Positions 1 to 54,489 are shown, counted from the stretch's first letter. The stretch: 64,000 bases of DNA from Candidatus Iainarchaeum sp. (GCA_026413945.1 JAOAJX010000006.1:20519-84518), one strand, 5' to 3'. Translations and numbers: made by a program. The notes: generated by a model not told the origin, from the letters alone.

Positions 1-1
1 A

Positions 2-7952: not shown

Positions 7953-8711
7953 TTAAATATCATTTATTCTTGTACAATTAAGGCTGTTTGGACCTATTAA
8001 GCTCTCATTTTCTACTCCAGGTAGCATTCCTGCTGAATGCCACATTATAAGGCCGGTGAATATGACTACGCTCTTACTTTCTCTACCGCTGTAAGAAGGA
8101 ACAAAGCGCTTGAAAAGAAGCGTAATAACCCTTGTGCTTGTGGAATTTGGTGCATGTTTGAGAACAAGGTTTAAGGCGCGATTAAGCTTTAATTTTGGCT
8201 CGCAAAAGTATTCCAAGCGCTCTACGTTTTGTGGCCCCTTTATATCGTTTATTTTCATATAGACAAAAACAAAGCGATCTGTTTGATTTCCAGTTGGATT
8301 TCCTGTTGGTTCAGGTGCATAATCTGCTGGGGTCCAAAAATATAAGATATAGTCATAGTTTACTGCTCTCGGGGACATTATTTTGTCAAGGACCCTCTTT
8401 GCAAGAATTTTTGTATCATTTGCTATTGTTCCTGTGTTTGCATAATCCTCTTTCATCTTTGTGAGAAGCCAATCAACCTCATCTGCTGTTTCTAACTCGT
8501 CTGATGTGAAACGCGGTATGCTTGAATTAAGCATTGCACGCAATGCAGAAGATGCATAATCTTCATTGAAGTACTTATGAATGTTTATTTCAACGCCACG
8601 GCCGTACGAAAACGAAATATAAGCCATTCCAGCAGCAAGTGTCGCAACAATTACTAGCATAAAAAGTGCATCTGTTATTGAAGCCTGTGCCTTTTCACAT
8701 TTCATTCCCAT
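7953..8711 (-). CDS. Pilin-like protein with class III signal peptide
   Basis: MKCEKA|QASITDALFMLVIVATLAAG: basic leader, A|Q cleavage site and hydrophobic helix. Last gene of a tightly packed minus-strand operon. Confidence 0.75.
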   Translation of the reverse strand: MGMKCEKAQASITDALFMLVIVATLAAGMAYISFSYGRGVEINIHKYFNEDYASSALRAMLNSSIPRFTSDELETADEVDWLLTKMKEDYANTGTIANDTKILAKRVLDKIMSPRAVNYDYILYFWTPADYAPEPTGNPTGNQTDRFVFVYMKINDIKGPQNVERLEYFCEPKLKLNRALNLVLKHAPNSTSTRVITLLFKRFVPSYSGRESKSVVIFTGLIMWHSAGMLPGVENESLIGPNSLNCTRINDI

Positions 8712-9205
8712 ACCACCACTACCAAAAGCATTGGTTTTGTTATTGGTTTTCTCAGCGCACTATTATCTTTATAAGATACAGGCACCATGTGGACTATAAC
8801 ACGGCTGTTTAGCTTAAGCTTTTGTTCTATCTCAAGTGGGCAAGAAAAAAAGTTACCGTCTTGTGAAAATATTCTTTTACCTTCGTTCACGAAAGCATAT
8901 ATATCTATGTGCTCAAATGGTTGATTAAGGTCTACAATACCAGCCCTAAAATTATAGCCACGAGGATTAAGGCCATAGCAGATACTCTCAAATTCAGCAT
9001 AATCATCTATTTCACGATCACTCTTAAGAAAGCTGGCAATGCTCATTGCATTAGAAGTTAAGCTAAAATTGGCAGATGTTTGCCTGTATATTGTATGGGC
9101 GCTATAGAAAGATGCAAAGAAAATAAGCAATGCAAATATCAGTGGAACCAGGCTTGGTAGGTCATCACCAATTGGACCAATATAGCCAGCAGCTCTTTTA
9201 AACAA
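8702..9205 (-). CDS. Pilin-like protein (class III-type leader)
   Basis: MFKRAAG|YIGPIGDDLPSLVPLIFALLIFF, then a Cys-containing globular part ending LLVVVVWE. Overlaps the next gene. Confidence 0.65.
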   Translation of the reverse strand: MFKRAAGYIGPIGDDLPSLVPLIFALLIFFASFYSAHTIYRQTSANFSLTSNAMSIASFLKSDREIDDYAEFESICYGLNPRGYNFRAGIVDLNQPFEHIDIYAFVNEGKRIFSQDGNFFSCPLEIEQKLKLNSRVIVHMVPVSYKDNSALRKPITKPMLLVVVVWE

Positions 9206-9886
9206 TTAAACCCCCCAGCATGTTGGAGCATCCCTGCTTATGCAGTCAGCAATGTTAACATTGAAGCAGTTGCTCAAATCTTTTCTTTTCCTGTACAAGT
9301 AGCAGCCGACTAACTGTTTGTTTTGCTCGCAAATGCCTTTGGCAGTAGTTGAACACGGTATCAGATAAAGATATGGTTTGCCCTTATAAATCTCATGAAC
9401 CACAGTAAGTTGATCCATCGTTATTGGTGCAGATCTAACATCAAGCACTGTTCTTTCTGTAGGACACAAAAGCGCTTCCTTTTGGTCATATGAAAATATT
9501 TGTATATCTGAGTTTAGGTCAAGCTGCGAAGAGCTCACTACTGTTGGATTACCACGCTTCTTTAGGTAATCGTTGCGTTCAATAATTGCAATTATAAGGT
9601 GCTGTTTGCCTGAAGTTAAAGATGTCTCTTTTCTCAATTCTACTACATAATAAAAGTCCATAAGGTTGTAAAAAGAGTACTTCCGTCTAAAAGCAATCTC
9701 TTGTGAATCGCAAAGGGCTTTTTGGCTCACCACACGAGAGATTGTTTCGGCAGAGCTGCTTGCAATATTTTTAGAGATGTCATAAAGCAACGTTGACCTA
9801 AATGAAAACGCAAATCCAACAATTATTGCAAATAAGGCAATTGCAAGTATTAAAAGATTGATTTTGCTCAGCGTAAATTCCATCAT
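9206..9886 (-). CDS. Pilin-like/minor pilin protein without an obvious cleavable leader
   Basis: N-terminal hydrophobic helix MEFTLSKINLLILAIALFAIIVGF, Cys-rich C-terminus, inside the pilin operon. An in-frame TAG a few codons upstream rules out a longer leader. Confidence 0.6.
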   Translation of the reverse strand: MMEFTLSKINLLILAIALFAIIVGFAFSFRSTLLYDISKNIASSSAETISRVVSQKALCDSQEIAFRRKYSFYNLMDFYYVVELRKETSLTSGKQHLIIAIIERNDYLKKRGNPTVVSSSQLDLNSDIQIFSYDQKEALLCPTERTVLDVRSAPITMDQLTVVHEIYKGKPYLYLIPCSTTAKGICEQNKQLVGCYLYRKRKDLSNCFNVNIADCISRDAPTCWGV

Positions 9887-9890
9887 AAAA

Positions 9891-10442
9891 TCACTTTTTG
9901 TAATATGCGCAAACTATTGGAAATGTCTGCCTCGGGGGTGTTTCGTTGACCAAATCATAGTGACCTATTGGCATGTTATCGCGAAGATCTATTAGCGTGT
10001 AACCTTCGGAAGACCTGTCTGGACAATTATCAAGCGTTGTTGGGAAGTAAACCTGCACTGCAGTTTTAAGGCAAAATCGCTCAACAAAATCTTTGCTGTC
10101 AAACAAAATGAAAAGGCATGCAGGAGTTGCTATATCACATGCGGAAGCACATATTACTTCATCAGTTGTAGAGACAACTTTTATCCTCTGGTTTCTATAG
10201 CACGATGGTGGGTTAAAGTAAAGCTTTGACCGGCTTCTTAATTCAGAGACGTTTTCAAGCTCAGAGCGAAATTTTTCAATGCTTGCCCTTAAGCGATTTT
10301 TGCAATCCTGATTAAGCATATCGCTCATTACCATAAAACCAATGTAGAGGACGAAACCCATTATTATCACAGCAATTAAAACCTCAAAAGGCGCAGATTC
10401 TTGCGCCTTTTCATGCATTCTGCTTTTAACCGTAGATATCAT
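9891..10442 (-). CDS. Cys-rich pilin-like protein with class III signal peptide
   Basis: Start reassigned to ATG 10442 (overlaps the upstream TGA as ATGA) or ATG 10418: MISTVKSRMHEKA|QESAPFEVLIAVIIMGFVLYIG. The ORF-track extension to 10610 is out-of-frame overlap with the small pilin. Confidence 0.75.
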   Translation of the reverse strand: MISTVKSRMHEKAQESAPFEVLIAVIIMGFVLYIGFMVMSDMLNQDCKNRLRASIEKFRSELENVSELRSRSKLYFNPPSCYRNQRIKVVSTTDEVICASACDIATPACLFILFDSKDFVERFCLKTAVQVYFPTTLDNCPDRSSEGYTLIDLRDNMPIGHYDLVNETPPRQTFPIVCAYYKK

Positions 10443-10606
10443 GAAGTCACACTCTTTGTTGTTTTTGTCACTATCTTTTGGGTATTTTGGTACATTGGTT
10501 TTATAATATATATAATGAGAAGCGCAACAATTGCAAACACAAGGATTAAGTAAACTGCAGACCAATCGCCTTGGGCCTTTTCTTCTGGCAAGATGCCTTT
10601 TTTCAA
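10439..10606 (-). CDS. Small 55-aa Flp-sized pilin-like protein (not in ORF track)
   Basis: TTG start after GGTGGTGTGA. Translation MKKGILPEEKA|QGDWSAVYLILVFAIVALLIIYIIKPMYQNTQKIVTKTTKSVTS*; its stop overlaps the next ATG. Confidence 0.8.
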   Translation of the reverse strand: MKKGILPEEKAQGDWSAVYLILVFAIVALLIIYIIKPMYQNTQKIVTKTTKSVTS

Positions 10607-10716
10607 TCACACCACCATTAAATTAGAATATGCTTTGGACTATATAAAGTTTTTCAATTTAGTTAAATTTAATAATAAGTTAAAATATCAATCCTAAAGA
10701 AGAGGCGTGAATTAAA
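10607..10716. promoter_or_regulatory. Divergent promoter region between the pilin operon (-) and the ATPase operon (+)
   Basis: AT-rich 110-bp gap with TATA-like TATATAAA (10641) and TTTAATAA (about 10668); SD-like GAGGCGTGA before 10717. Confidence 0.55.
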
Positions 10717-12996
10717 ATGAAGATTGGCGGTTTTAAAGTAGGGGAATATGCATTTAAGGAAGAGGGCAAAAAAAAGCATCTTGTATTTGATTGTGCCTCA
10801 TGTGTTTATCATGCATCAATATCCGATGACCGCGTTTGCATGTATCATGTGCTTTATGCACTCAATGAGATAGATGCAGATGTAATTGTACTTTCCGAGG
10901 TTTATGAGAGGATATATGATGAAAAGCAAACCCTTATTTTGAAAGAAATTGTAAAGCTTATTCAAAAGTTCTCGATGGAGGCGCCTTGGTCATACAATAA
11001 CCTTGTCAATCCGCAATACCTTAAGGATGAAGGCGTTGTAAGTGCAAGACATAAAATGATTGTAACTATAACTCATGACCTAATAGCATATGATCCACTC
11101 GGTGCCTACTTTGCATGTCTGCGTGAAATTAACAGGGAAAAGGAAACGTTCTCTAGCAGCGGCCCTGATTACAAAGCAGGTTCTGCTATTTACCTCAAGA
11201 CACTGCTTTACATTAAAAGTGCATTTGAGGAATGCGAACTAATAAAGCAGACAAAGAAGTTTTTAACTGAGCTCAAGGAGATGCCTGAATTTAAGGAAAT
11301 TTATAGGGCTTTGTTTGAAGCGCAAATAAAGCCGGCCTTTATCGGATCGCGTCTTGTTTTTAGAGAAGAAGAAGGCATGGAGCTTCTCGATGAGTATTTG
11401 GTTAAGAATAGCACAGTCCAGATATTTAGCCATCCAAACCAGACACAAAATCTTTACTTCATAAATCCCCCCGAATATACTTTGAGCCCAGAAAAATATT
11501 TCGTACTTAGCAAGGCAAAAGAGATTGTCTCTGGCTATACGCCGGGCAAGGCATCACTGAGCACAGTTGCAAAATCGAGGGAGTATTTTGAGCGTTTATA
11601 TAGAAGCACTATAATGGAAATAGCACAACAGCATAACATCTCGCTAAACAAAAAAGAAATTGTTGAACTCAGCGAAATTGTTGCAAGATACAGCGTTGGT
11701 TATGGCATACTTGAAATACTTCTAAGCGACAGGAAGCTCACAGACATCTACCTTGACTCCCCAATAGGCCAGACGCCGCTCTATGTTATGCACTCTGATT
11801 TTGATCAGTGCCTTACAAATGTCCTTTATACAGAAAGGGAAGCATCTGCGCTTATCACAAAGCTCAGAGCTATGAGCGCAAGGCCTTTTGATGAAGTACA
11901 TCCAGTGCTTGATTTTGACCTACCTGAGCTCGAGACTAGGGTAGCAGCTATAGGACCGCCACTTGCACCAGATGGCGTTGCTTTTGCATTCCGCCTACAT
12001 AAAATAACGCCTTGGACATTGCCTCAATTCATAGATGTAAAATACCTAAATCCTTTGGCTGCTGGATTTATTTCATTCTTAATAGATAATCAAGCAACAA
12101 TGCTTGTAACTGGTTCAAGAGGCTCTGGCAAGACATCTTTGCTTAGTGCATGCATCCTTGAAATTCCTAAGAACACAAGGATTATTGTGCAAGAGGACAC
12201 GCTTGAAATACCCGTAGAATACATGAAAAAAGTTGGTTTTAACATACAGCGCCTAAAAACAAGATCGCCCATAAGTGTGTCAAAAACTGAAGTTGAGGTT
12301 GAACCAGAGGAAGCGCTTAGGACTGCCCTGCGCTTGGGCAACAGCGCGCTTGTCATAGGAGAGGTGCGTTCAAAAGAAGCAAGAACATTATACGAAGCGA
12401 TGCGCATAGGTGCCGCAGGCAATGTTGTAATTGGCACAATACATGCTGACTCAGCCTATGCTGTTTGGGATCGTGTTGTTAATGACCTTGAAGTTCCCAC
12501 CACTTCTTTCAAGGCAACAGATATAGTTGTTACGGCACGCCCAATAAGGTTTTATGGCTCATTAAAAAGTAACAGACGGGTTGTTGAGATAACAGAAATA
12601 AGGAAGCATTGGATTGAGGAACCTGCAAGAGAAGGCGGCCTTTTAGATCTGATGAGATATTCTGCAAAAGAAGATAATCTTGAGCTTTTGGAGGACAATC
12701 TTAAAGAGTCTGAGCTTTTTGATAAAATCTCGAGAATATCTGGACAAACCCTTGAAGAGATGTGGAAAGATATAAGAATGCGTGCAGAGTCAAAGCGCTA
12801 CCTAGTAGAAATGAAAAACAAGCATGATATACCTGAGTTATTAGAAGCTGACACTGCATCAATGGCAAATGACAAGCTTATGCTTCTGAGGGAAAAACAA
12901 ATCAGAGAGTTTGGCAAAGTAAACTATGATGAAATTCTTGAGCAGTGGAAGAAATGGCTAAATGATAAAATAATACCAAGGCTTATAAAGAAATGA
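10717..12996 (+). CDS. Type II/IV secretion system ATPase (VirB11/TadA/FlaI family)
   Basis: Walker A GSRGSGKT, Asp box QEDTLEI, ALRTALR, Walker B LVIGEVR, His box GTIHADSA. Long N-terminal domain with CxxC...C. Confidence 0.95.
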   Translation: MKIGGFKVGEYAFKEEGKKKHLVFDCASCVYHASISDDRVCMYHVLYALNEIDADVIVLSEVYERIYDEKQTLILKEIVKLIQKFSMEAPWSYNNLVNPQYLKDEGVVSARHKMIVTITHDLIAYDPLGAYFACLREINREKETFSSSGPDYKAGSAIYLKTLLYIKSAFEECELIKQTKKFLTELKEMPEFKEIYRALFEAQIKPAFIGSRLVFREEEGMELLDEYLVKNSTVQIFSHPNQTQNLYFINPPEYTLSPEKYFVLSKAKEIVSGYTPGKASLSTVAKSREYFERLYRSTIMEIAQQHNISLNKKEIVELSEIVARYSVGYGILEILLSDRKLTDIYLDSPIGQTPLYVMHSDFDQCLTNVLYTEREASALITKLRAMSARPFDEVHPVLDFDLPELETRVAAIGPPLAPDGVAFAFRLHKITPWTLPQFIDVKYLNPLAAGFISFLIDNQATMLVTGSRGSGKTSLLSACILEIPKNTRIIVQEDTLEIPVEYMKKVGFNIQRLKTRSPISVSKTEVEVEPEEALRTALRLGNSALVIGEVRSKEARTLYEAMRIGAAGNVVIGTIHADSAYAVWDRVVNDLEVPTTSFKATDIVVTARPIRFYGSLKSNRRVVEITEIRKHWIEEPAREGGLLDLMRYSAKEDNLELLEDNLKESELFDKISRISGQTLEEMWKDIRMRAESKRYLVEMKNKHDIPELLEADTASMANDKLMLLREKQIREFGKVNYDEILEQWKKWLNDKIIPRLIKK

Positions 12997-13008
12997 AGTC
13001 GTGGTTAT

Positions 13009-15366: not shown

Positions 15367-15371
15367 CTGCA

Positions 15372-15818
15372 ATGATGAACAAAGGTTATTTTTGGCCTTT
15401 TAGGTTGTTGATTGCAACAATATTTGCGCTTGCGATGCTCACAATAATAATTTCTGCTTTGGAGTACTTCAAAAATGTGGAAAGATCAACAAGCTACGAG
15501 AGGTTTGAAAACGGCTTCAAAAATGCGCTATATGCTGCAAGCAGCGATCCAAGTTATGGCTTGGCAAAAGAGAAAAACATCACAATTGTTGGAATAATAA
15601 CAGCAGGCCAATTTTCAGAAAAATACAAAATACCCTCAGAATGCATAGAGTTTCAGGCAATAAGCGGCATGCTAATAAAGCTCTCAGAAAACAAGCGAAG
15701 GGTTATCATTGAGAAGGAAATAACGATTGATGTTTATTTCCATTGCATACGATACAACGTTGGAGAATGCGAAATAAAATGCTACATATCCTTTGGCAAA
15801 GCGCCAAAAATTGGTTAA
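15372..15818 (+). CDS. Pilin-like protein with class III signal peptide
   Basis: MMNKG|YFWPFRLLIATIFALAMLTII and a C-terminal Cys cluster; resembles the next gene. Confidence 0.75.
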   Translation: MMNKGYFWPFRLLIATIFALAMLTIIISALEYFKNVERSTSYERFENGFKNALYAASSDPSYGLAKEKNITIVGIITAGQFSEKYKIPSECIEFQAISGMLIKLSENKRRVIIEKEITIDVYFHCIRYNVGECEIKCYISFGKAPKIG

Positions 15819-15836
15819 AGGTTACATTGGCTATAC

Positions 15837-15892
15837 AAAAGGTTTAAATATAAGAAATAGTATTCTTATGAAATATAACTCGTGAGGTGAGG
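15837..15892 (+). promoter_or_regulatory. BRE/TATA promoter and strong SD for the pilin gene at 15895
   Basis: AAAAGG-TTTAAATA (TATA at 15843-15850) and GAGGTGAGG at 15884-15892. Confidence 0.6.
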
Positions 15893-15894
15893 AT

Positions 15895-16497: not shown

Positions 16498-16510
16498 AAG
16501 GCTATGAAAG

Positions 16511-17161: not shown

Positions 17162-17231
17162 TTATATTAATAACAATAGCATTTCTTATTCATAAATCAG
17201 TATCTGGAATAAATATCTGGGGCGTAAAAGG

Positions 17232-25310: not shown

Positions 25311-25315
25311 TTTAA

Positions 25316-42992: not shown

Positions 42993-43015
42993 CGCAATTA
43001 CTAACAGGGATAGTT

Positions 43016-49000: not shown

Positions 49001-49906
49001 ATTAACTTCAATAACAACTTTGCATTCTTCAGAGAAGGGAAAACAAACGCAAAAGTAAGAGTAAAGTATTCAAAAATATCCAGCCCAGAACCTGACTCCT
49101 TATTCTACTACTGGCCTATTGACGGCGAAGTTGGGCTTAAAACAGGGCGTAACGGGTATGGAAGCACATATGAGAATATCAATAAACCAATTATCATTGG
49201 ATCTTATGGTGGGAGAGAGCTTAAAACAGATTCGAAGAGCAGTAATGCTCTCGTGAAAGTTTCTACAAATATTGTCGATAAATTTGAGTATGTTAATACA
49301 GATCCTAAGACAAGAGGCAACCTCTTAAGCGCAAAAATTTCTGAAAATGGGCTTTCCATTAATTTTTCTCCTAACACGGCATCTTTTGTAATAATGAAGG
49401 TTTCAAACAATGAAGAAAACCCAATATATGCAAAATATCAACTCTTTAGTGGTGGGGCAAAGATCAATTGCGGTGACACATTAGCATATTGGGCTGGAAT
49501 TGGGAATTGCACTTCATTTTCTGGTGAGCCAATTAAAGAGATTAAAAACCAGCCTGATGAACATTTCGGGGAAAGCACTTATGGTTTACAGTGGCCAAAC
49601 AATGGCAAAGCAAGTAGCGTTTACCTAAGCACTATTTTATTTGTACCATCTAATAAGGAGTTTGAATTGCGTTCAGCATCTAGAAATGTCATTTTCTTGG
49701 ACAAGGAGCTTAGCCAAAATGCATCTTACAACCTGAAATCAACTCATAGCCATGCGGTACGCTCAATAGACGAACTATTAAACATGATGAAGCAGGGGCT
49801 TCTTTGTGTTTCTGCTGAAAGTAATGAGATGCAAATATGGTGGAACCCTGAAAGCACTGATTACAGCACAGCAGCTGAAATACTTTCAAAAAGGGGCTGT
49901 AGCTAG
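43016..49906 (+). CDS. Giant membrane-anchored surface protein D (2296 aa)
   Basis: Same architecture: KWASIEW, REPFDEELG, LYAKA, AYCDAVQ, YYWPIDGEVG, LCV...WWNP, and an internal hydrophobic hairpin. Confidence 0.85.
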   Translation: MEIEEIEDEENIIYRIKERYIAFCEKNKIPKALPILVAIILILALAYILFFSANPQPKPKEFSLIVYFRDEKGAPVSGLDVNVTINGEKTRRKTDSKGKISITVDENSNVKISLRETLYLDGEWTFKISEDTERTITLKLREKPLEKIIVRFETSKGSTKGKYVKVTLSCSNKAINQWDEFDSDKDGIIEITLPLDCGEVKVENAELENHLFERTFKKGKDIFVTFKEIEIPKGTLRVKIVDDKKELILNKNITVSIERDGERKSSFTQGYGIVEFSNLMPGSYNVYAVDPEQSYSASNTNAIVKANETTEVFLALSRNISAMLLIRTIDMKTLGAIEGATAKVIKNGNTMVEEITKENGIARVPLFDMGSYVIVVKRDGYFPKKIDFNVTSASESVTIELERITEENMGRTFVKVVDEEGMAVKDAKVIFKYKETGAIVELQSKQNYALTDENGTAEFVLGAINSDVYPFAIKYPAFGGSPAQAKKIIPDENNYFEVILKVGKSKIKVMAKDSEGKPLNEAYFEVFSSFDHNSVTKGKMLIIDGMTEYEIKAAQSVYVVVSKEGYIKYKSRILQLWPNEEYEINAVLLKEGEVAKPKIEFLGIFDGNLVASALKAGRTYVVKFNAYFPKGSSKNGFHFRIGENQDANLEPAFIKFVNAKGAKVKIGLTYRPPKSESIEELAPTGGKWASIEWDSNETGTYELYFEIKIKENVKPRTVILFYYRSYAIFDKAVTREPFDEELGELLSTQSKDGLYAKAHKLQFYEGSESACKELFCISGYWLYDAQEDIFLKEPYSVMLFGDYNFLFDIINNSQNDYNKIILIVKNTINNRQDNALAFESLVISIPAGQKELKPKDNEFKEEVMPFSYSEQLKGNVKFKGRIEITTNIAVEIVADRYVVFSKSIPVKVYSAGKLDVNIQPNAFLPFASHDLKIMVRDQSKSPIKGALVTVRRTHDDGTDETLQEITDNNGLVSFKIKESFPKTKIEVLVEKMGYAPFRWEKSVDGNIAKITPESISVNLNTDSKTQEKIILSIENRVGSDLLVKSARFTGGFNGILDEASMNANATTIVGKTIKTKDQLDFALNFLLSQNAEDLMQSNVDLNGAIEIIVSVPRFGADYALVVPFKAKVSLGGLPENAPCISLSGPNVPDWSVATINDTARTEVKISNICISNGKPIDLENLQAKLTWASGSKKAGSIEISINSPDGSTVTKILKPGIWTKLFDGFKNELNSGTYNAVITFKPLPDYAGETASFTIEIDGQTKTDKGLAFVGSDSKIEAKILIIDLKGCIKYPKEKITIKPNEKEAKIKIDANGCNTNISVWLCKDDPKCRGGTEEGGITLIPYEELKFTKTETSKSVTVYREQIAGQYGITVHAKAPDMDYQQIGTIDVVVEPTEREYFSMSRYEFTLTNSTNWKDSTDLINKMWVEDVNITAKLCTACQNPKKLPDYCIMNRALEKSTLDKPDWWVNVAISLGVGLTAGAGCAIAAAEAKIVDPTALIIIAGACFLGSALATYFTISGAECDVQMATYPFMDYVVNLPDDLKGLKVMGKPYDVNLGSDERSSYKKREQILPISFENKGKDSSDKSGYGILEIKAIEHIHGDPTHTNPKMERNKADFGLFNVPDTETKEYSQKIHLRFITNANFSEKLTKAGAETKSCSIGTKSGFTGDGLVPKIKLDWSWKTIEWNFCDADNENAAYCDAVQHSIALTKRLKMLDDFFKANNYSFECPAHPKNKATQSIIDSTNEKESSRSVSIGKVGVSKVEYSANNISLSVVLRAMVENKTADEQSTKIKFLLKNQALAKECEKETIVGSNSSVTVECLFENLVANDDPYFGSAAAVDSSKGNADKKAVTVAFVLQSKNSDCWLPYSTRKIEGKPALLYFIDRNIRNWGNYVNVKEINWPAGWPGSNAQEKIAFLEKLIEFDTLLVRDAYPNSLKSDFVEHYTKETFMDVPTWFSGSSGFKEYFLDKDAIEFETGDSTKKLPGPGKYRIFLEINFNNNFAFFREGKTNAKVRVKYSKISSPEPDSLFYYWPIDGEVGLKTGRNGYGSTYENINKPIIIGSYGGRELKTDSKSSNALVKVSTNIVDKFEYVNTDPKTRGNLLSAKISENGLSINFSPNTASFVIMKVSNNEENPIYAKYQLFSGGAKINCGDTLAYWAGIGNCTSFSGEPIKEIKNQPDEHFGESTYGLQWPNNGKASSVYLSTILFVPSNKEFELRSASRNVIFLDKELSQNASYNLKSTHSHAVRSIDELLNMMKQGLLCVSAESNEMQIWWNPESTDYSTAAEILSKRGCS

Positions 49907-49956
49907 GGACGCAAATTAATTTAAACAAAAAAAGCATTTTTATTAAAGGTGTAATA

Positions 49957-50373
49957 ATGCTTTGGCTTACTTTATTGAATATTTTGCTCTTTTGGGAAAT
50001 AATTTCAGATTTTATGCTGGTTCTTAAAATTTTTGCGATTATAACTATAATCTCTTTTGTTCTAAACCATGTGGAAAGCAAGCCGCTTGCCGCAATACTA
50101 ATAGTTGCGATATCTTGGTTTGTGGTATTTGAATGGTGGCAATTCTTTGGTGGAATATATCTCTTATATACGCTCATAACGCTAGGTATAAGCGGCATGC
50201 TTGTTGACTTCTTTTTCATTAGTGGTATGGCAGGAGATCGTACACCTCAGCAAGTAGCTGATGATAATTCACCGGTTAGCTCCTCATTGGACTTGGCCCA
50301 AAGAAAAGAAAGATTAGAGGCTGCAAGGCGCATACATGCAATGAAAAAAAGGCCCGGGGGTATGATGAGATGA
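49957..50373 (+). CDS. Small integral membrane protein
   Basis: About 3 hydrophobic helices and a basic tail; AAGGTG upstream; overlaps the next gene (ATGA). Confidence 0.75.
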   Translation: MLWLTLLNILLFWEIISDFMLVLKIFAIITIISFVLNHVESKPLAAILIVAISWFVVFEWWQFFGGIYLLYTLITLGISGMLVDFFFISGMAGDRTPQQVADDNSPVSSSLDLAQRKERLEAARRIHAMKKRPGGMMR

Positions 50374-50690
50374 GCCAGAGGGGAATTCACCTGATGGTGC
50401 TTATATTTGTAGCTCTTTTTGTATTGCTTCTGCTACCGCCGATAATAATGGCTATTTTTAAGCCAGCAGACTTGTTAATAAGGATACTGTTGACAATAAT
50501 GATATTTGCAACGGTTAGAAACATGCTTGGCTCAAATGCACTTACAATTGTAATAAGCAGCGTGTTAGTGTATATACTAGTCATAAAATATGCTCCAATA
50601 ACTGCTTCACTTTATATATTCTTTTTTGTGCTGTTAGCTTACAACTTTATAGCTGCTGTAATGTGGGGGCTTACAAGGTTGCCAAGGTAA
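50370..50690 (+). CDS. Small integral membrane protein
   Basis: 106 aa, almost wholly hydrophobic; translationally coupled to the previous gene. Confidence 0.75.
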   Translation: MSQRGIHLMVLIFVALFVLLLLPPIIMAIFKPADLLIRILLTIMIFATVRNMLGSNALTIVISSVLVYILVIKYAPITASLYIFFFVLLAYNFIAAVMWGLTRLPR

Positions 50691-50736
50691 TGCGCATAGA
50701 AAAACATTTAAATACAGAATCACTTTTCTAATATAC

Positions 50737-51192
50737 ATGGTTGAAGAAAGATTATCAGAATCGAGACCGATTAAAACATCTACGCTTTTGATGCAAATTA
50801 TGGAAGACGTGAAAGCACTAAACAGCGCAGTTTCACTTATTTCCCAAAAGATGAGGCACATTGCTAGAAATGAGAAAATACTTGGAAGAAACATAATCGT
50901 ACTAAACAAAAAGATAAAGGAAATTGCTGAAAGCGGTGCTAACCAAGCAATACCTGAAAGCTTGATAAAGAGAATTGAAGATATTGAAAAAAATTTGGAT
51001 GATACAAATAAAAAGATCGAGGAAATAAATGTTGTTGTGGCTCATTTACGCAAAGAGTTTGTAAGCCACGGCGAATTCAATGAGCTGAAGCAAATAGTAG
51101 ATGCTATAAACCCTTTAGAACTTGTAACAATAGATCAAGTAAAGGAAATTGTTGGTCAAAGCCAAAAAAAGAGTCAGTCAGTGGGTTTTTAG
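50737..51192 (+). CDS. Hypothetical coiled-coil protein
   Basis: Heptad-rich 151 aa with a C-terminal INPLELVT motif. Confidence 0.75.
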   Translation: MVEERLSESRPIKTSTLLMQIMEDVKALNSAVSLISQKMRHIARNEKILGRNIIVLNKKIKEIAESGANQAIPESLIKRIEDIEKNLDDTNKKIEEINVVVAHLRKEFVSHGEFNELKQIVDAINPLELVTIDQVKEIVGQSQKKSQSVGF

Positions 51193-52694
51193 TTTTCCTT
51201 CTTACAGCAGTCGCTTATACCGGGCCTTATAAGCGCCCTATAATTTTTCCTGTTTTCTATAACAACAGCTGCATCATTTCCTGATATTATGCCTATTGTG
51301 CTCAAAAAAAGCTTTGCAACATCGCTGTTGATGTCAACCTTATCACTAGCTTCAACAATAAGGCCGCAACCATACTTGGCCATTTCGACAAGATCAGCAG
51401 CAATTCTTTTGCTTGTATAGTTCGCCGAAAATCTTGGTATTGTCATATTGCTTGCTGTAAAGAAAACAATCCACCTTAGCTTGCTACTCTCTCCTTTGCT
51501 CTTGAAGTAAGTCTTTAGCGCGGCAGTTGTGGCCTGCAGAGAGAGTATGTCTTTTCTGAAATCATTGCTTTTAAAGAGCAGTATATTTGCTCTGCTAATT
51601 CCTCTAGCCCATTTTTTTGTTATGTCTTCTACAGGAGTATAATTTACAAAAAGACCTGGGTAGATACATTCTATAACTTCTATTATTCTTTGTGCCCCCC
51701 TCTTTACAAAAGGGGTTATCTTTGGAGTTTCTTCTATGTCTGCAATTCTCCTTTTCAGCTCTTCAATAGTTTTGAACCCGCCACGCTTGAAAGTCTCCAC
51801 TAATACTTGGCTTATAGTATTTTTGCCCAATCCAAAAAGCTCGATAAGAGCTTCTGGATCAACATATTCTATCTGGGCGTTTATTTCCAAACCGGAGCGG
51901 AAAACCTTTATTGGAAAACCAACTGGATCAAGCTCAACTTTGTATTTTGCTAGCTCATCAAATCTTTTGTTTGGATTATTCAAGCCTCTAAAAGAGTCAG
52001 TCCAATCAACTATTATAAGTGGAAGATCTGACAGCATAGCGCTTTCAGCCAACACATGTAGAACATGTAACCTATCGCTTTCCTGACCGCCAAAAACGAC
52101 AGTTCTTTCAAAAAAGTCAAAAGGTTCCTTTACAGTTGTGTTTGCTTTTGTTATACCAAGATGTATTTCGCCATGGGTAACCTCTATTATCTCTGCACTA
52201 TGGCCTCTTTTTGCGATTGGTGCAAAAATTAGATTTATGAGTGGCATAGAATAGAAAGCTGATTTGGTTTCGTTGTCACAATTATTGAGTTCAGTAAGAG
52301 TAACATCGTAAGCACTGCTAACTTTTAAAATCAGCTCTTTGAGTGTTTCGGTTCTCTTAACAAGCTCATCAAGTTTTTGTGAGATTCTTATTTCATCATA
52401 GGGAATATACTCTACGCCAGAGTCGACTAGCACGAACTGATGAGATATATTCGATGAGCTAATGCTAAGTGTAATTGTTCTTTTTGGAAGATGTTTTAAA
52501 AAAGAAGTTACATCACCCTTTGCATGCAATACATGAAAAACTTCAAGAAGAACTGCCTTTGTACTCTCGCCTTCTTTTTCGTGTATTATAGATAAAATTG
52601 TGTTCATGCTATTAGCCTTAACCTCATAGCTAAAGCCCTCTATTTCTCCGACGAGCAAATCAGACCAAGGACCTGCAGAAACCTTAATTTCCAT
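51189..52694 (-). CDS. HerA/VirB4/DUF87-like P-loop protein with degenerate Walker motifs
   Basis: IHLGITK strand, RTVVFGGQESDRLHVLHVLAE in the Walker A position, PLIIVDWTDSFRGL (IIDPxGEY-like), EMAKYGCGLIVEA (E.RKFG.G...TQ-like), and a terminal IRP. Confidence 0.65.
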   Translation of the reverse strand: MEIKVSAGPWSDLLVGEIEGFSYEVKANSMNTILSIIHEKEGESTKAVLLEVFHVLHAKGDVTSFLKHLPKRTITLSISSSNISHQFVLVDSGVEYIPYDEIRISQKLDELVKRTETLKELILKVSSAYDVTLTELNNCDNETKSAFYSMPLINLIFAPIAKRGHSAEIIEVTHGEIHLGITKANTTVKEPFDFFERTVVFGGQESDRLHVLHVLAESAMLSDLPLIIVDWTDSFRGLNNPNKRFDELAKYKVELDPVGFPIKVFRSGLEINAQIEYVDPEALIELFGLGKNTISQVLVETFKRGGFKTIEELKRRIADIEETPKITPFVKRGAQRIIEVIECIYPGLFVNYTPVEDITKKWARGISRANILLFKSNDFRKDILSLQATTAALKTYFKSKGESSKLRWIVFFTASNMTIPRFSANYTSKRIAADLVEMAKYGCGLIVEASDKVDINSDVAKLFLSTIGIISGNDAAVVIENRKNYRALIRPGISDCCKKEN

Positions 52695-52818
52695 TAACCC
52701 ACCATATAGATAAAATTTTTAAAAGATTTAAAGCTTTCTGTATGCTTTTAGCAAACTATATTCTCTAAACAAATAGGATTAACTTTTTAAACCGTAAATG
52801 CATTATATTTAGCGCCGA

Positions 52819-53469
52819 TTGGTGGTGTCTTTTGTGGATGAGACTATACTTATAGAAACTATAAAGAGAATGAAGGACTCTGGCCTTGAAGATGATGTAA
52901 TATTAGATACATTAGAAGACGTTGGCATAAGCAGGGAAAGAGGCAAAATACTTATTGAAAAGTCCTCGGGAAAAACTACATTAGCGGGTGCAATAGAAAA
53001 AAAGGATCAACCCATAAAAAAACCTTTAACTGTGCAGGCAGAGAAAGAGGTTAGTGAGAACAAAGATGAATTTGTGGCAGAGGGAACTGAAAGCGAAATT
53101 GGCTCATTGCTTGAGTCTGCGGAGCCGGATTATATAGAAACTGAAGAGAAAGAGATAACAACAGCTGAAAGAATAATGGGTAAGATAGATGACACAAAGC
53201 TCGAGCACGATTTGCATCACACGACACTGCAAGCGGCAGTAGTTCAACAAACAGGAATGATTGAAGATCTGCATAAAACAGTTGGAGAAGCAGTAAACAA
53301 AAAACCGGAATGCCCAAAGACTATGAGCGAGCAAGTTACAAAAATGCAATCAGATATTGAGAAAATAAAGGAAGACATTGATGCACTAAAAGGCGACATT
53401 GCCGCAATGAAGGAGCTTATGGAAAAAGTGCTTGAGTCAACAAAAAAAGTTCTTTTAAGAATGTCTTAG
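52819..53469 (+). CDS. Hypothetical protein with small helical N-domain, acidic linker and C-terminal coiled coil
   Basis: ETIKRMKDSGLEDDVILDTLEDVGIS, then heptads at the C-terminus. Start codon uncertain. Confidence 0.7.
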   Translation: MVVSFVDETILIETIKRMKDSGLEDDVILDTLEDVGISRERGKILIEKSSGKTTLAGAIEKKDQPIKKPLTVQAEKEVSENKDEFVAEGTESEIGSLLESAEPDYIETEEKEITTAERIMGKIDDTKLEHDLHHTTLQAAVVQQTGMIEDLHKTVGEAVNKKPECPKTMSEQVTKMQSDIEKIKEDIDALKGDIAAMKELMEKVLESTKKVLLRMS

Positions 53470-53490
53470 GTTTGCACCAATATAAGAATT

Positions 53491-53877
53491 TTATTTAAAA
53501 ATTGCTGAAAATTTTGAAGATAAGTTTTTTGCGGTCTTTCCAAGCTTAGCTTTTATTTCTTTTGATGATTCGCCTATTGACCATCGCCCATCCTCGTTGA
53601 ATACTTGCTCACCAGCCTTCCTTCCAACCTCTTTAACCATTTCTGAAACTGCTTCTTCTGGATATGATGTTTGCGCCTTTGCAACCTCTTGAAGTTCCTT
53701 CTTTGCTACAGAAGCTGACTTTGATGCTCCTTTTTTGGCAAAGTCATATGCTTTTTTGGTGAGAGAAAGCAAAAGATATGAGAAAGCAGCCAGTGAGAAA
53801 AAAAAACCCATAAAAACTTGTTTTTGCCAAAAAAAGAAAAGCGCTATGAATATAAGCACAAAAAAAACTTCAAGCAT
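53491..53877 (-). CDS. Hypothetical membrane protein (2 TM plus helical tail)
   Basis: N-terminal hydrophobic hairpin; in an operon with the two upstream genes. Confidence 0.7.
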   Translation of the reverse strand: MLEVFFVLIFIALFFFWQKQVFMGFFFSLAAFSYLLLSLTKKAYDFAKKGASKSASVAKKELQEVAKAQTSYPEEAVSEMVKEVGRKAGEQVFNEDGRWSIGESSKEIKAKLGKTAKNLSSKFSAIFK

Positions 53878-53881
53878 GTTA

Positions 53882-54196
53882 TTATCCCATGCCTATTTCT
53901 TCTTGCCCATATGCACCAAAACCAATATCTGGAGAAAGTTCAGTCCTACTCTCCTTTTTAAAGCTAAGCACCAATGCTAGCACTATGAGGCAAATTGCAA
54001 TGACTAACCAAAGGTCTTTAAGCATGTCTCTTGCCATGTAGGTTAAAACTAGGGCCAGTAGAATTACTGCTGTTGTTGAAAAAGATCTGGAAGTAAGGAT
54101 CATCACCATAAATATGCCAAAAACTATCCAAAGCTGCCCATATTGCATAAAAAGCATCATAAGGACAATTGAAACCGCAATCATTAGAGTATCCAT
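53882..54196 (-). CDS. Small integral membrane protein
   Basis: 104 aa, hydrophobic; AGGTGAG SD upstream. Confidence 0.75.
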   Translation of the reverse strand: MDTLMIAVSIVLMMLFMQYGQLWIVFGIFMVMILTSRSFSTTAVILLALVLTYMARDMLKDLWLVIAICLIVLALVLSFKKESRTELSPDIGFGAYGQEEIGMG

Positions 54197-54204
54197 TTGC
54201 TCAC

Positions 54205-54489
54205 CTAATCTTTCAGAAATTCTGGCTTTTTGCTTCCAGCTGGGATTTTTTCAAACATGCCACTGAAAAGAGTTTGGATTAGGAAAAGAATGACAGGTAT
54301 AAGTATAAGTTCGGGGTATTTTACGAAAGTAAGATAGACAACTAAGGTTGTAAGCACGGCTGCAATCTTTGCTGACCCAAGTTGTTTTTTGAACCAGCCA
54401 AATATCCATATAGTGTAAACTATGCAGAGAACAACCCAAAGATTTGTTACGAAGTCATTTCTGCCAAAGATAGTATCAAGCACATCCAT
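54205..54489 (-). CDS. Small integral membrane protein
   Basis: Likely start ATG 54489 (MDVLDTIFG...); resembles 49957 and 50370 (W.KKQLGSAKIAAVL...VYLTFVKY). Confidence 0.7.
   Translation of the reverse strand: MDVLDTIFGRNDFVTNLWVVLCIVYTIWIFGWFKKQLGSAKIAAVLTTLVVYLTFVKYPELILIPVILFLIQTLFSGMFEKIPAGSKKPEFLKD

Follow-up and report, generated by a model that had tools for sequence, protein, structure and literature searches.

Gene content of the locus

The window (the whole stretch of 64,000 nucleotides analysed here) belongs to an Iainarchaeota (Diapherotrites, DPANN) assembly of 0.95 Mb (948,649 bases in 21 contigs), the nearest relatives of which are Iainarchaeum MAGs. It carries the following genes, with positions counted from its first letter.

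1..4294, + strand: g0, S-layer-like secreted protein, 1525 aa (full gene G000:C18:20235-24812, beginning 284 bases before the window)
6673..7209, - strand: tm178, polytopic membrane protein, preceding g0 in relatives
7953..8711, - strand: pA, pilin-like, 252 aa; N-terminus K-A-Q then ASITDALFMLVIV
8702..9205, - strand: pB, N-anchored membrane protein, 167 aa; conserved juxtamembrane motif GPIGDDLPSLIP
9206..9886, - strand: pC, pilin-like, 226 aa; very short leader, then GF/TLSKLNLLIL
9891..10443, - strand: pD, pilin-like, probably 183 aa; N-terminus K-A-Q then ESAPFEVLIAVII
10717..12996, + strand: type IV filament ATPase, 759 aa; T2SSE, with a clade-specific N-domain of ~290 aa
13009..15366, + strand: FlaJ/TadC-like platform protein, 785 aa; one T2SSF domain, residues 172-294
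15372..15818, + strand: pE, pilin-like, 148 aa; orthologues have KGQ then F.PF.LLI
15895..16497, + strand: pF, pilin-like, 200 aa; K-G-Q then AFSTFQLLISAIIALAIL; candidate major pilin
16511..17161, + strand: minimal exosortase/archaeosortase-family protein, 216 aa; PF09721 and TIGR04178 signature
17232..25310, + strand: G1 giant, 2692 aa; N-module, membrane helix, prealbumin/Ig-like domains, long unassigned region
25316..27007, + strand: M563, prepilin-like, 563 aa; starts R-G-F, NLFTALL
27118..34437, + strand: G2 giant, 2439 aa
34512..42992, + strand: G3 giant, 2826 aa; 88 cysteines
43016..49906, + strand: G4 giant, 2296 aa; last ~700 aa homologous to the end of G3
49957..50690, + strand: tm138 and tm106, small polytopic membrane proteins following G4
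50737..51192, + strand: cc151, coiled-coil protein, loosely linked
51189..52694, - strand: x501, HerA/FtsK-fold protein with degenerate P-loop, 501 aa, loosely linked
52819..53469, + strand: cc216, coiled-coil protein, loosely linked
53491..54537, - strand: tm128, tm104 and tm110, small membrane proteins, inverted here

The plus-strand genes from 10717 to 51192 are co-directional, with intergenic gaps of ≤111 bases. An earlier note, made from the sequence alone, had bounded the system at 7953-54489; the genes are there, but the left edge does not hold, as the cluster runs on through tm178 (6673-7209) to the 1525-aa protein ending at 4294. Measured between the first base of g0 (C18:20235) and the last of cc216 (window 53469), it spans 53.75 kb, or ~5.7% of the assembly. 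Upstream of the window, contig C18 carries a run of genes for nine more secreted proteins and for another filament system, and this region looks like a general "surface island". The comparison covered 11 relatives in depth and 20 further genomes around the ATPase.

A putative type IV filament machine distinct from the archaellum

The ATPase matched Pfam T2SSE (E = 1.8e-20), with GSGKTS at Walker A and legible Walker B and His-box motifs; it appears active, and its earlier assignment to the VirB11/TadA/FlaI family is borne out. The closest solved chains were an archaeal GspE-like protein (2oap), CpaF and FlaI. Models for FlaI, TadA and BasE all scored far below cut-off (FlaI 132 bits versus 550), in agreement with the earlier claim that this is not an archaellum, and none of the seven T2SSE ATPases in the source genome reached the FlaI cut-off. 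At E ≤ 1e-10 the query matched all 201 of 201 phylum genomes, paralogues counted in; the best 150 matches listed showed 47-100% identity, with full-length orthologues of 47-97% identity throughout the phylum sample. The N-domain was found in 223 proteins, the named carriers all being Diapherotrites, 'archaeon', Candidatus ainarchaeum sp. or Micrarchaeota (one).

The downstream protein had been described as a fused TadB/C platform. Its identity as a platform stands, with a T2SSF score of 25.2 bits for the whole protein (exactly the Pfam cut-off) and 26.8 bits for the N-terminal half alone. The fusion is not borne out: a single T2SSF domain is detectable, the C-terminal half had no Pfam match, and hhalign comparison of the two halves (27 orthologues) returned a probability of 0.4%. 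The platform gene adjoins that of the ATPase in 25 of 31 relatives (10/11 read in depth, 15/20 read around the ATPase), the f6 genomes being among those where it does not.

Where eight pilin-like genes had been reported, we counted seven, namely six small ones and the 563-aa prepilin-like M563. Assignments as pilin-like were made solely from N-terminal motifs. Four of the small proteins (pA, pD, pE and pF) have a KGQ-type, class-III-like N-terminus, and class-III-like N-termini are kept among orthologues; those of pA conserve [KR]GQA..TDA. The N-terminus of pB is atypical but conserved (GPIGDDLPSLIP, then a membrane helix), and the protein is not a typical prepilin. The open reading frame at 9891-10610 (pD) probably starts at ATG 10443, giving 183 aa, because its orthologues measure 186-198 aa and begin just before KGQESAPFELL. 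Searches of Pfam and NCBIfam found no family for pA, pB or pC, and pF matched neither a pilin family nor a PDB chain. The N-terminus of pF is the most conserved of the set; it has a paralogue at G000:C16:39186-39788 and is duplicated in G015 and G117. Major pilins often have a paralogue elsewhere in the genome. Three prepilin peptidase (Peptidase_A24) genes are present in the source genome, all of them outside the cluster.

A minimal archaeosortase and its probable substrate

The sortase scored above cut-off with PF09721 (26.6 versus 25.7) and the TIGR04178 signature (35.1 versus 23), and every aligned orthologue keeps the Cys in LCTG, the Arg in N..RI and the His in H..LFR, confirming the Cys-Arg-His exosortase/archaeosortase recognised earlier. 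All named subfamily models fell below cut-off (ArtD 37.6 bits versus 125), leaving the generic family signature. Homologues were found in 73 of 81 phylum genomes. At E ≤ 1e-5 the query matched none of the four f32 genomes; short, divergent sortase copies adjoin the ATPase in the f32 genomes G017 and G117.

The S-layer-like g0 begins with a Sec-type signal peptide; its C-terminus consists of NLPSLPE followed by a membrane helix and a basic tail, an ending that it alone has among the 1584 open reading frames of the genome. The same ending was found in 7/7 order-level orthologues with a complete end, and variant forms of it in two class-level genomes. Known archaeosortase-type substrates carry a tripartite C-terminal signal, as parts of one account describe (PMC6098224). 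Since this C-terminal signal is unique to g0 and occurs on none of the giants, g0, which lay outside the region first delimited, is the probable sortase substrate rather than the giants. Orthologues of g0 (1450-1690 aa) neighbour the pilin operon in each of the 10 relatives read on that side, and those of tm178 directly upstream of g0 in G001, G002, G010, G015, G021, G060 and G028. Neither g0 (Pfam, NCBIfam) nor tm178 matched a family in our searches.

Four giant paralogues and an embedded prepilin-like protein

The four giants total 30.8 kb and are paralogous by blastp (G2/G3/G4, E = 1e-43 to 1e-84; G1 more weakly, 1e-11 to 1e-17), so the four paralogues of 2.3-2.8 kaa and ~31 kb described earlier are confirmed at 2296-2826 aa. 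In the giant tree each forms a separate clade with one member per genome (support 100 for G1, 99 for G2, 97 for G3 with 8 rows, and 100 for G4 with 6 rows), and one-to-one orthology and gene order hold over many families. They share a previously unnamed N-terminal module of ~45 aa, whose profile gave 1139 matches among 1.84 billion cluster representatives (803 at E ≤ 1e-10), always N-terminal and mostly in proteins of 2000-3250 aa. The N-termini of the giants show no class III signal and no ordinary cleavable signal peptide, at their C-termini none of the four has a hydrophobic helix, basic tail or sorting signal, and we saw no feature in their sequences pointing to contact with either pilus motor or sortase. 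Export of the giants is supported by a split paralogue on contig C17, in which the giants' C-terminal domain follows a Sec signal peptide of the paralogue's own.

M563 lies between G1 and G2. In members of its family the leader is 4-9 residues long and is followed by [GA]/F[NT]LFTAL and a run of hydrophobic residues; a strict version of this pattern is present in 27 of 32 homologues. M563 was found in 70 of 81 phylum genomes and has no Pfam family; its Atlas matches were to Iainarchaeota clusters only. Small membrane proteins had been noted after the giants and were found at 49957-50690 and 53491-54537. Both tm138 and tm106 follow the last giant in G021, G014, G006 and G101, and one of the two does so in G002 and G001.

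Conservation and separability of gene order

The earlier proposal had been staked on synteny of the giants and sortase with the ATPase and pilins in related genomes, and on this point it survives. The sortase adjoins the ATPase in 26 of the 30 relatives with sequence on that side (9/11 read in depth, 17/19 read upstream), with a G1-type giant next after it in most such genomes, and, among the nine order-level genomes examined in depth, eight keep the order G1, M563, G2, G3, G4. When coordinates were compared by hand, ATPase and sortase lay ≤13 kb apart in 42 of 44 genomes with both on one contig, and sortase and M563 ≤31 kb apart in 46 of 48. Despite rearrangements, the sortase is also found beside the ATPase in G004, from another order, and in f32 (G017, G117); in G017 both g0 and the sortase remain with the ATPase, and no giants are nearby. 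A divergent operon pair, as described earlier, is present in the window but is not general: most relatives have a single co-directional operon from the ATPase to pA, from which the sortase and giants diverge, and the inversion is specific to the genus and its near relatives.

The arrangement comes apart in two families, f6 (G006, G110, G061) and f22 (G101, G169), where ATPase, sortase and giants occupy separate places and the platform stays with its pilins, apart from all three. In G006 and G101, M563, the giants, tm138 and tm106 are contiguous though unlinked from the ATPase, and in G101 the sortase remains on the contig of G1. The conserved order also continues into housekeeping genes (PolB, M24 peptidase, PAC2, HisRS) and a second pilus ATPase; synteny alone is therefore weak evidence of function, and the neighbourhood may partly reflect slow rearrangement.

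The HerA-like gene and right-hand small genes

The HerA/VirB4-like pseudo-ATPase that had been counted into the system is upheld as to its fold and degenerate P-loop, but not as to membership, being loosely linked. Searches with x501 gave no Pfam or NCBIfam match above threshold; its homologue P0010 (42% identity) matched HerA/DUF87 clusters in the ESM Atlas (features 0.94-0.95, structure TM 0.50-0.60), and GGQESDR occupies the Walker A position of x501, without GK[ST]. In two complete genomes x501 lies ~95 kb and >300 kb from the giants, and in a third on a separate contig. The coiled-coil gene cc151 flanks x501 in G002, G021, G015 and G004 and lies near the sortase in G006. In the source genome tm128, tm104 and tm110 are inverted jointly with cc151, x501 and cc216; in G021, tm106 is followed by tm110 and tm128, encoded on the same strand as the giants, and in G002, G004 and G101 by tm110, likewise on that strand.

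A proposed modular cell-envelope cluster

We read the cluster as an archaeal pilus locus with surface-protein accessories, and consider it somewhat better than an even bet that it is a phylum-conserved cell-envelope cluster of three usually neighbouring, separable modules, with M563 linking the giants to the pilus. The first module would be a type IV filament machine of the adhesion-pilus type, comprising the ATPase, the FlaJ/TadC-like platform and six small proteins, with pF probably the fibre subunit, pA, pC, pD and pE minor pilins, and pB a membrane accessory; prepilins would be cleaved by one of the three peptidases encoded elsewhere and assembled by the ATPase-platform motor. In the second, the NLPSLPE/helix/basic tail of g0 would be cut and the protein re-anchored by the minimal archaeosortase, a pairing modelled by analogy on ArtA and its PGF-motif substrates. 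The third would consist of the four anciently diverged giants, M563 and two small membrane proteins. An N-terminal signal-anchor located after the ~45-aa module may fix each giant in the membrane, with ~2200-2750 aa of prealbumin/Ig-like repeats and conserved C-terminal region projecting outside the cell. The filament machinery would process M563 and insert it, and M563, as a large subunit serving as tip or adaptor, would connect the giants with the pilus; we infer this coupling because its prepilin signal is the one sequence-level link from the third module to the first. Such a surface might serve adhesion to surfaces or other cells. A small-genome archaeon devotes about 5% of its DNA to a phylum-conserved pilus/sortase/giant-protein surface cluster. 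Our literature searches found no description of a locus with this composition. Parts of it have parallels. In archaea, type IV pilus loci frequently encode an S-layer-like protein that has a C-terminal membrane helix, together with a large adhesin/minor pilin (described in part of PMC4858521), and in Omnitrophota bacteria a T2SS/T4P-like system and small genes with a class III signal lie ahead of the giant genes, according to portions of a preprint (bioRxiv 10.1101/2023.11.21.568195).

The earlier note had proposed a single host-attachment, contact or penetration apparatus, in which pilus motor, sortase, giants and HerA-like protein form one machine at a cell-cell junction. The contiguity of the full set here, co-directional, and in most relatives, the prepilin-like gene embedded among the giants and the share of the assembly (about 5.7%) speak for it, as do analogues in sections of two papers: Saccharibacteria episymbiosis needs type IV pili (PMC9894109), and giant SPEARE proteins take up 4% of a Nanohaloarchaeota genome (PMC6642349). 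We nevertheless regard it as doubtful. Families f6 and f22 have the modules apart, which does not sustain a single dedicated machine; the HerA-like gene is distant from the giants in G014, G006 and G017; g0 is the better sortase substrate candidate; and the giants' one-to-one orthology and stable order are unlike those of fast-turnover host-range adhesins. The proposal also takes as its premise that the organism is host-attached, whereas a capability for autonomous growth has been inferred for Diapherotrites (in parts of PMC6642349 and PMC8561730). At the other extreme, pilus, S-layer protein with sortase, and giants could be three unrelated surface systems with neither a physical nor a functional link, neighbours only through slow gene-order change. 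The reach of the conserved order into PolB, M24, PAC2, HisRS and the second pilus ATPase, the separation of the modules in f6 and f22 with no apparent loss, and the "surface island"-like run upstream on C18 are all consistent with this. We think it unlikely, given that the sortase stays beside the ATPase in G004, G017 and G117 despite other rearrangements, that the prepilin-type protein is retained in the giants' block even after the block has moved, and that in Omnitrophota, too, giant genes came to be associated with a T2SS/T4P-like system, in the portions of the preprint cited above.

Quite improbable, in our estimate, is a type II secretion-like piston, in which the small pilins would build a short pseudopilus, tipped by M563, instead of a long pilus; this would push the giants, and perhaps also g0, across the envelope or thread them through it. 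Many minor-pilin-like genes accompany one large tip-like prepilin, the giants have no ordinary cleavable signal peptides, and the neighbouring system in the Omnitrophota precedent is described, in those same portions, as a secretion system; on the other hand, the giants' N-terminal membrane helix would suffice as a Sec signal-anchor, pF has a paralogue elsewhere, as often seen with major pilins, and the evidence does not tell a short pseudopilus from a long pilus. Compared with the modular cluster that we favour, processing of the giants by the archaeosortase seems very improbable indeed, even though G1 comes immediately after the sortase gene here and in most relatives, the two share a contig in G101, and a PS[LF] motif resembling the PSLPE of g0 stands directly before the giants' membrane helix. 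All four giants lack a C-terminal hydrophobic helix and a basic tail, and in G017 the sortase keeps company with the ATPase and g0 and not with a giant. Moreover, the PS[LF] motif precedes an N-terminal anchor and would face the cytoplasm, opposite to the motif of known substrates as parts of PMC6098224 describe it.

Setting and gene order

The gene association that the earlier note had picked out is real and goes far beyond chance. Its best-supported description is an envelope cluster of three modules. The first would be a pilus machine. The second would comprise an S-layer-like protein, which bears a new sorting signal, and the minimal archaeosortase dedicated to it. The third would be a block of four giant N-anchored proteins, in which an embedded gene for a prepilin-like protein forms the genetic tie to the pilus system. 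The source assembly comprises 948,649 bases in 21 contigs at ~38% G+C, with the window at 20519-84518 of contig C18, and the homologues' public names are nearly all 'Candidatus Diapherotrites archaeon'. Archaeal housekeeping genes flank the cluster (PAC2, family B DNA polymerase, M24 peptidase, HisRS, ribose-5-phosphate isomerase and five tRNAs).

Genes of the cluster (positions in the window unless a contig is named; tm and cc with a number, small membrane and coiled-coil proteins)
Contig C18 of the source genome G000, 20235-24812: g0, 1525 aa, with a Sec signal peptide; its 3' part opens the window
7953-10610, minus strand: four small genes, pA, pB, pC and pD
10717-51192, plus strand: fifteen successive genes with intergenic gaps of at most 111 bases, including, in this order, the ATPase (759 aa), the platform (785 aa), pE, pF, a 216-aa exosortase-family protein (the sortase), giant G1, the 563-aa prepilin-like protein M563, giants G2, G3 and G4, tm138, tm106 and cc151
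After cc151: x501 (501 aa, minus strand), a second coiled-coil protein and three small membrane proteins; the DNA polymerase gene PolB ends the run

Usual gene order in relatives (strand in brackets)
Left part: M24(-) PolB(-) cc151(+) x501(-) cc216(+) [tm128 tm110 tm106 tm138](-)
Middle: G4(-) G3(-) G2(-) M563(-) G1(-) sortase(-) <> ATPase(+) platform pE pF pD pC pB pA
Right end: tm178, a 1450-1690-aa protein (g0), PAC2, a second pilus ATPase

Inverting the ATPase-platform-pE-pF block once converts the usual order into that of the window. The divergent operon pair described in the earlier note is therefore a derived arrangement. The window also carries a second local inversion, from cc151 to tm110, and a member of the same genus (G046) has the window-type divergent arrangement too. 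A 273-base AT-rich stretch with TATA-like runs (10444-10716) separates the ATPase from the probable start of pD; as this is the junction made by the inversion, both promoters would lie there.

Other features were seen at the margins. At 4336-5874, between g0 and PAC2, a 512-aa N-anchored protein gave weak PEGA and CarboxypepD_reg-like matches; it may be a lineage-specific insertion, since no orthologue appeared in any relative's locus that was read. Five tRNA genes are interspersed at 58979-63138 among HisRS, an ArsR-type regulator and ribose-5-phosphate isomerase. Left of the window, contig C18 (1-20234) encodes nine secreted proteins; in several of them a membrane helix and a basic tail are found at the C-terminus. 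A second filament system sits directly upstream of g0, with a 579-aa ATPase bearing a Cys-rich N-terminus and two separate TadB/TadC-like genes.

Conservation and linkage across relatives

For eleven relatives, each from a different family, the comparison took in 40-80 kb around the ATPase; nine of them belong to the same taxonomic order and two to other orders of the class. For twenty further relatives it covered 20 kb around the ATPase start. Of the 11 genomes read in depth, 9 had the sortase adjoining the ATPase, as did 17 of the 19 others with sequence there (G133 had none), the exceptions being G006 and G110 of family f6 and G101 and G169 of family f22. When coordinates were compared by hand, ATPase and sortase lay within 13 kb of each other in 42 of 44 genomes carrying both on one contig, and sortase and M563 within 31 kb in 46 of 48, with G006 and G061 as the exceptions in both comparisons. 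In a sample of 81 phylum genomes at least 85% complete, matches were obtained in 73 with the sortase query and in 70 with that for M563. The earlier note had proposed one attachment machine at 7953-54489 and had made this depend on the giants and the sortase being syntenic with the ATPase and pilins in related genomes; such synteny was found, and the proposal survives on this point.

The cluster occupies roughly one-twentieth of the 0.95-Mb genome. Its retention across the phylum sample, where the motor protein keeps 47-97% identity, makes a central role in the biology of the cell very likely. No member of the Iainarchaeota is in culture.

Motor ATPase and platform

The ATPase belongs to the VirB11/GspE/FlaI family of secretion ATPases (PF00437, T2SSE, E 1.8e-20, 73.3 bits against a cut-off of 24.9), with Walker A, Walker B and His-box motifs legible in its translation, and its nearest solved structures are an archaeal GspE-like protein (2oap), CpaF and FlaI. 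It reached the cut-off of neither the FlaI/ArlI equivalog model NF058587 (132.4 bits, cut-off 550), the TadA/CpaF model TIGR03819 (132.1 bits, cut-off 373) nor the BasE NCBIfam model (67 bits, cut-off 1000). The shortfall against the FlaI/ArlI model bears out the earlier statement that the system is not an archaellum; no locus protein matched ArlH, ArlF/G or ArlCDE/X in Pfam or NCBIfam. Altogether seven T2SSE-family ATPases are encoded in the source genome, none of which attained the FlaI cut-off (best of the other six, 332 bits).

An N-domain of ~290 aa in the ATPase is clade-specific. The closest public relatives are MAGs titled Candidatus Iainarchaeum (97, 91 and 85% identity), and the best 150 matches listed show 47-100% identity across almost the full length. 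The ATPase query had matches in all 201 phylum genomes at E<=1e-10, paralogues counted. About 10 of 120 orthologues listed are 1260-1279 aa long and contain the intein domains PF14528 and PF14890; the pilus ATPase therefore hosts an intein in some lineages. At G135:C3:6278-7927, in another relative, the ATPase frame is open over 1259 aa.

The platform has one PF00482 (T2SSF) domain, scoring exactly at the 25.2-bit cut-off, or 26.8 bits with the N-half alone. A Pfam search with the C-half returned no family, no second T2SSF domain was detected, and an internal duplication was rejected, as profile comparison of the two halves gave it no support.

Pilin-like genes and prepilin peptidases

Alignment of orthologues from six relatives revealed a conserved [KR][GA]Q or GF motif followed by a hydrophobic stretch, a predicted class III signal, in pA, pC, pD, pE, pF and M563.

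N-terminal motifs of the pilin-like proteins
pA: class-III-like, [KR]GQ↓A.(I/V/L)TDA
pC: (M)LGF↓TLSKLNLLIL
pD: class-III-like, KGQ↓ESAPFELL
pE: class-III-like, KGQ↓F.PF.LLI
pF: class-III-like, KGQ↓AFS.FKLLIAAIVA
M563: [KR][GA]F↓NLFTAL

Of 32 database homologues of M563, 27 carry its motif by a strict pattern; two of the remaining five are N-terminally truncated. pB differs from the other small genes in having a conserved KGFLGPIGDDLPSLIP stretch ahead of its membrane helix. Judged by these N-terminal motifs, the eight pilin-like genes previously counted come down to seven at most. None of the pilin-like genes matched a pilin or archaellin family or a solved pilin in Pfam, NCBIfam or the PDB; the pF profile found nothing meaningful in the PDB, nor did pB and the small membrane proteins in NCBIfam. 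pF is a candidate for the major pilin subunit, because its N-terminus is the best conserved of the set and it has a paralogue on contig C16. The source genome encodes three prepilin peptidases (PF01478, above cut-off), all on contig C11 and none in the locus, and a loose class III pattern retrieves 17 candidates genome-wide.

An S-layer-like protein and a minimal archaeosortase

The 216-aa protein passes the generic exosortase/archaeosortase models (TIGR04178, 35.1 against 23; PF09721, 26.6 against 25.7). It remained below every cut-off among the named subfamilies, ArtA-ArtE and the exosortases, with ArtD as the best (37.6 against 125 bits) and XrtX, XrtG, XrtH, XrtM and XrtF far below theirs. 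A cysteine (LCTG), an arginine (N..RI) and a histidine (H..LFR) are invariant in the window protein and all aligned orthologues; going by the family motifs, we take these residues to be the family's putative catalytic triad. A general statement on that triad in the available text of PMC6098224 was also used for this assignment.

The C-terminus of g0 reads ...GGFNLPSLPEDVVFLVVYLSLLLTTITTTRTFLSRNSKK..., and the arrangement N(L/I)PSLPE, helix and basic tail recurs in all seven order-level orthologues with a complete end, with the variants LNLPLFPQEP in G004 and MSLPSLGEW in G017, both from outside the order. The genome has 1584 stop-to-stop ORFs of 100 aa or more, and g0 alone among them combines motif, helix and tail; no NCBIfam sorting-signal model matched its C-terminus. 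It follows the pilin operon in every relative with that side read, including G006, where it follows the pilins though the ATPase is elsewhere, and in G017 the sortase, ATPase, pilins and g0 are found together with no giant nearby.

According to the available text of PMC6098224, archaeosortase substrates are defined by a motif-helix-charged-tail layout, and g0, whose processing is predicted, has this cognate-substrate layout (motif, hydrophobic helix, charged tail). We paired the sortase with g0 because the motif is conserved and unique, the synteny is kept and the layout fits archaeosortase substrates. On these grounds g0, which lies outside the stretch assigned to the machine in the earlier note, is reasonably likely to be the sortase's substrate. 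The pair offers a candidate new sorting signal and, for a lineage with no described archaeosortase, a minimal one. Its resemblance to an S-layer protein is one of architecture (signal peptide, large ectodomain, C-terminal anchor).

A wider pattern, [LIVFM]PS[LF] directly before a hydrophobic stretch, was detected nine times among 2307 six-frame ORFs with a length of 80 aa or more. The carriers include G1, G3, a further giant on contig C17, pB and g0; the other four are two multi-pass membrane proteins and two antisense ORFs. The motif takes the form IPSFP or VPSF in the giants, DDLPSLIP in pB and NLPSLPE in g0.

Four giant proteins and their N-terminal module

The giants G1-G4 (2692, 2439, 2826 and 2296 aa) take up 3.2% of the genome and contain CarboxypepD_reg, Big_1, SpaA and MG-type domains within their first ~1000 residues. 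Segments of G3 past residue ~1100 matched no Pfam family and whole G3 had no match in the PDB, where a profile of the giants' C-terminal part gave a single match at E 1.6 and nothing else. In relatives, each giant had its own counterpart as best BLAST match. A FastTree phylogeny of 36 giants (first 1400 residues, labels by best BLAST hits) resolved clades for G1 (8 order-level entries, support 100), G2 (9, support 99), G3 (8, support 97) and G4 (6, support 100), each with one member per genome. The two giants of G004, from another order, branch at the base of G1, and two extra proteins of G006 sit on long branches where their placement is unsure. As judged from this tree, G1-G4 are four old orthologous lineages, and a recent tandem expansion was rejected.

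All giants share an N-terminal module (N-module) of ~45 aa, followed by one membrane helix, with the consensus MGL.D.LK.(F/L)YY.LEDKYY..LDKLD..(G)IPVYK.ID.(I/V)(D/E)..(I/V)PSF. A 72-position profile run against 1.84 billion cluster representatives retrieved 1139 of them at E<=1e-3 and 803 at 1e-10. The module lay at or near the N-terminus in all 150 matches listed, and complete proteins were mostly 2000-3250 aa long. Ten such proteins that we looked up, from Diapherotrites, 'archaeon' and once Micrarchaeota, were unnamed or called 'hypothetical protein' or 'carboxypeptidase regulatory-like domain-containing protein'. A new N-terminal module here marks more than 1000 clusters of giant proteins that are publicly annotated only by the last of these names.

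ESPR of autotransporters and YSIRK signals are conserved extra N-terminal segments before the export helix that are specific to very large surface proteins of bacteria. The N-module resembles them in being an extra segment ahead of a hydrophobic helix on giant proteins, with no sequence relation. A long-leader class III signal at the giants' N-terminus was considered and rejected, as G3 and G4 orthologues lack Gly or Ala before the hydrophobic stretch. A C-terminal hydrophobic helix is absent from all giants and from M563.

At 3568-13279 of contig C17 a fifth giant-type unit is split over two genes. The N-module and a G3-like N part are in the first (1685 aa), while the second (1549 aa) has a Sec signal peptide of its own and the G3-like C-terminal domain. 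The signal peptide on this copy argues that the C-terminal domain of the giants is exported. G3 (34512-42992) contains 88 cysteines, compared with 28-30 in the other three giants. Additional giants of 2100-2700 aa with little or no BLAST similarity to G1-G4 occur in the clusters of G010, G060, G023 and G006.

Three modules or one machine

Gene placement outside the common arrangement bears on how far these parts belong together. Along the complete genome G006 the parts are scattered, with the sortase at 73 kb, the giants' block at 233-276 kb, the platform, pilins and g0 at 339 kb, x501 at 584 kb and the ATPase at 709 kb; G110 and G061 show the same pattern. In G101 the ATPase with the platform, the sortase with the start of G1, and the remaining giants are on three separate contigs. 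In G014 a distance of ~95 kb separates x501 from the cluster, and in G017 it is on a different contig. The conserved gene order takes in housekeeping genes too. The scattering in f6 and f22, the distant x501 and the housekeeping genes all count against a single machine. On the other side, M563 stays within the giants' block with tm138 and tm106 in G006 and G101, and the sortase stays at the ATPase across taxonomic orders (G004, G017, G117); the retention of M563 in the moved block and of the sortase at the ATPase suggests that giants and filament system are linked.

This link could be taken further, with giants, M563 and pilus motor forming one organelle peculiar to Iainarchaeota, whose filament tip or base would bear a fixed hetero-complex of four fibrillar proteins of ~2500 aa. 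The N-module would then be a new targeting signal that hands the giants to the machinery, as class III signals do pilins, and the PS[LF] that giants, pB and g0 have in common would identify them as clients of one shared assembly site in the membrane. We regard such an organelle as improbable and prefer the cluster of three modules. The premise of host attachment is itself weakened by the capacity for autonomous growth inferred for Diapherotrites in the available text of Hamm et al. 2019 (PMC6642349) and Vazquez-Campos et al. 2021 (PMC8561730), both of which also report pilus genes in this group.

Relation to described systems

Our literature search found no description of a cluster of this make-up; the supplements of PMC13705601 and a figure of PMC6393860 may show such loci. 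The former, a 2026 survey of archaeal type IV filaments (T4F), states that ordered T4F loci are rare in DPANN, and 'sortase', 'giant' and 'Iainarchae' are absent from its main text as available. Makarova et al. 2019 (PMC6393860), in the text available, report loci from DPANN that encode an ATPase and TadC alongside 'specific surface proteins' and dark-matter pilins. Archaeal pilus loci with S-layer-like and large adhesin-like accessories are described in the available text of Makarova et al. 2016 (Makarova, Koonin and Albers; PMC4858521). Like the present locus, where the class III signals are predicted ones, these combine in a single locus a VirB11-family ATPase, a TadC/FlaJ-like platform, several proteins with class III signals, a large protein whose anchor is a single C-terminal helix and a large pilin-like or adhesin-like protein. 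In contrast, the present locus includes a sortase-family gene, a set of four orthologous giants (2.3-2.8 kaa) that bear an N-module of their own, and an ATPase with the clade-specific N-domain, in a lineage not covered there ('sortase' and 'Iainarchae' each occur 0 times in that text).

For the second module, the comparison is with ArtA and the PGF signal of the Haloferax volcanii S-layer glycoprotein as set out in the available text of PMC6098224: a polytopic Cys/Arg/His enzyme of the exosortase/archaeosortase family whose partner is a secreted surface protein ending in motif, hydrophobic helix and charged tail. Here, however, the motif is NLPSLPE instead of PGF and matches no NCBIfam model, the enzyme is minimal (216 aa, under every named subfamily cut-off), the genome holds one candidate substrate, and the sortase gene adjoins a pilus ATPase. 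The lineage is DPANN, whereas in that text archaeosortases are assigned to a part of the Euryarchaeota.

The nearest analogue of the gene association between giants and filament system is found in Omnitrophota, where a T2SS/T4P-like system and genes with class III signals lie ahead of the giant genes (bioRxiv 10.1101/2023.11.21.568195, text as available). Both cases place giant surface proteins by a conserved GspE/GspF-type system and small prepilin-like genes, phylum-wide and in small cells, a likeness of gene neighbourhood compared by description and not by sequence. Omnitrophota, unlike the present lineage, are bacteria with a secretin (gspD), and their giants are far larger and carry enzyme domains. 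The prepilin-like M563, which genetically links giant surface proteins to a pilus motor, echoes this independent case. SPEARE proteins of Nanohaloarchaeota (PMC6642349, text as available) are, as predicted for the giants here, very large, mostly extracytoplasmic, membrane-anchored DPANN proteins, taking up 4% of the genome there. They have protease, laminin-G and restriction-endonuclease domains and mostly a C-terminal anchor, whereas the giants studied here are N-terminally anchored, show only prealbumin/Ig-like domains as recognisable ones and form four fixed orthologues.

The HerA-fold protein x501

A profile of x501 had no matches in the PDB. For its homologue P0010 (42% identical), all ten best ESM Atlas feature matches were DUF87, HerA_C or TrwB clusters, with structural TM values of 0.50-0.60 to such clusters, and 3 of 11 x501 members gave weak DUF87 matches. 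From the homologue's Atlas entry and these matches we judged x501 to be a HerA/FtsK-fold protein. Its P-loop is degenerate, the Walker A position reading GGQESDRLH and lacking the Lys-Ser/Thr of G....GK[ST], and G202, R208 and H210 are invariant in 11 homologues.
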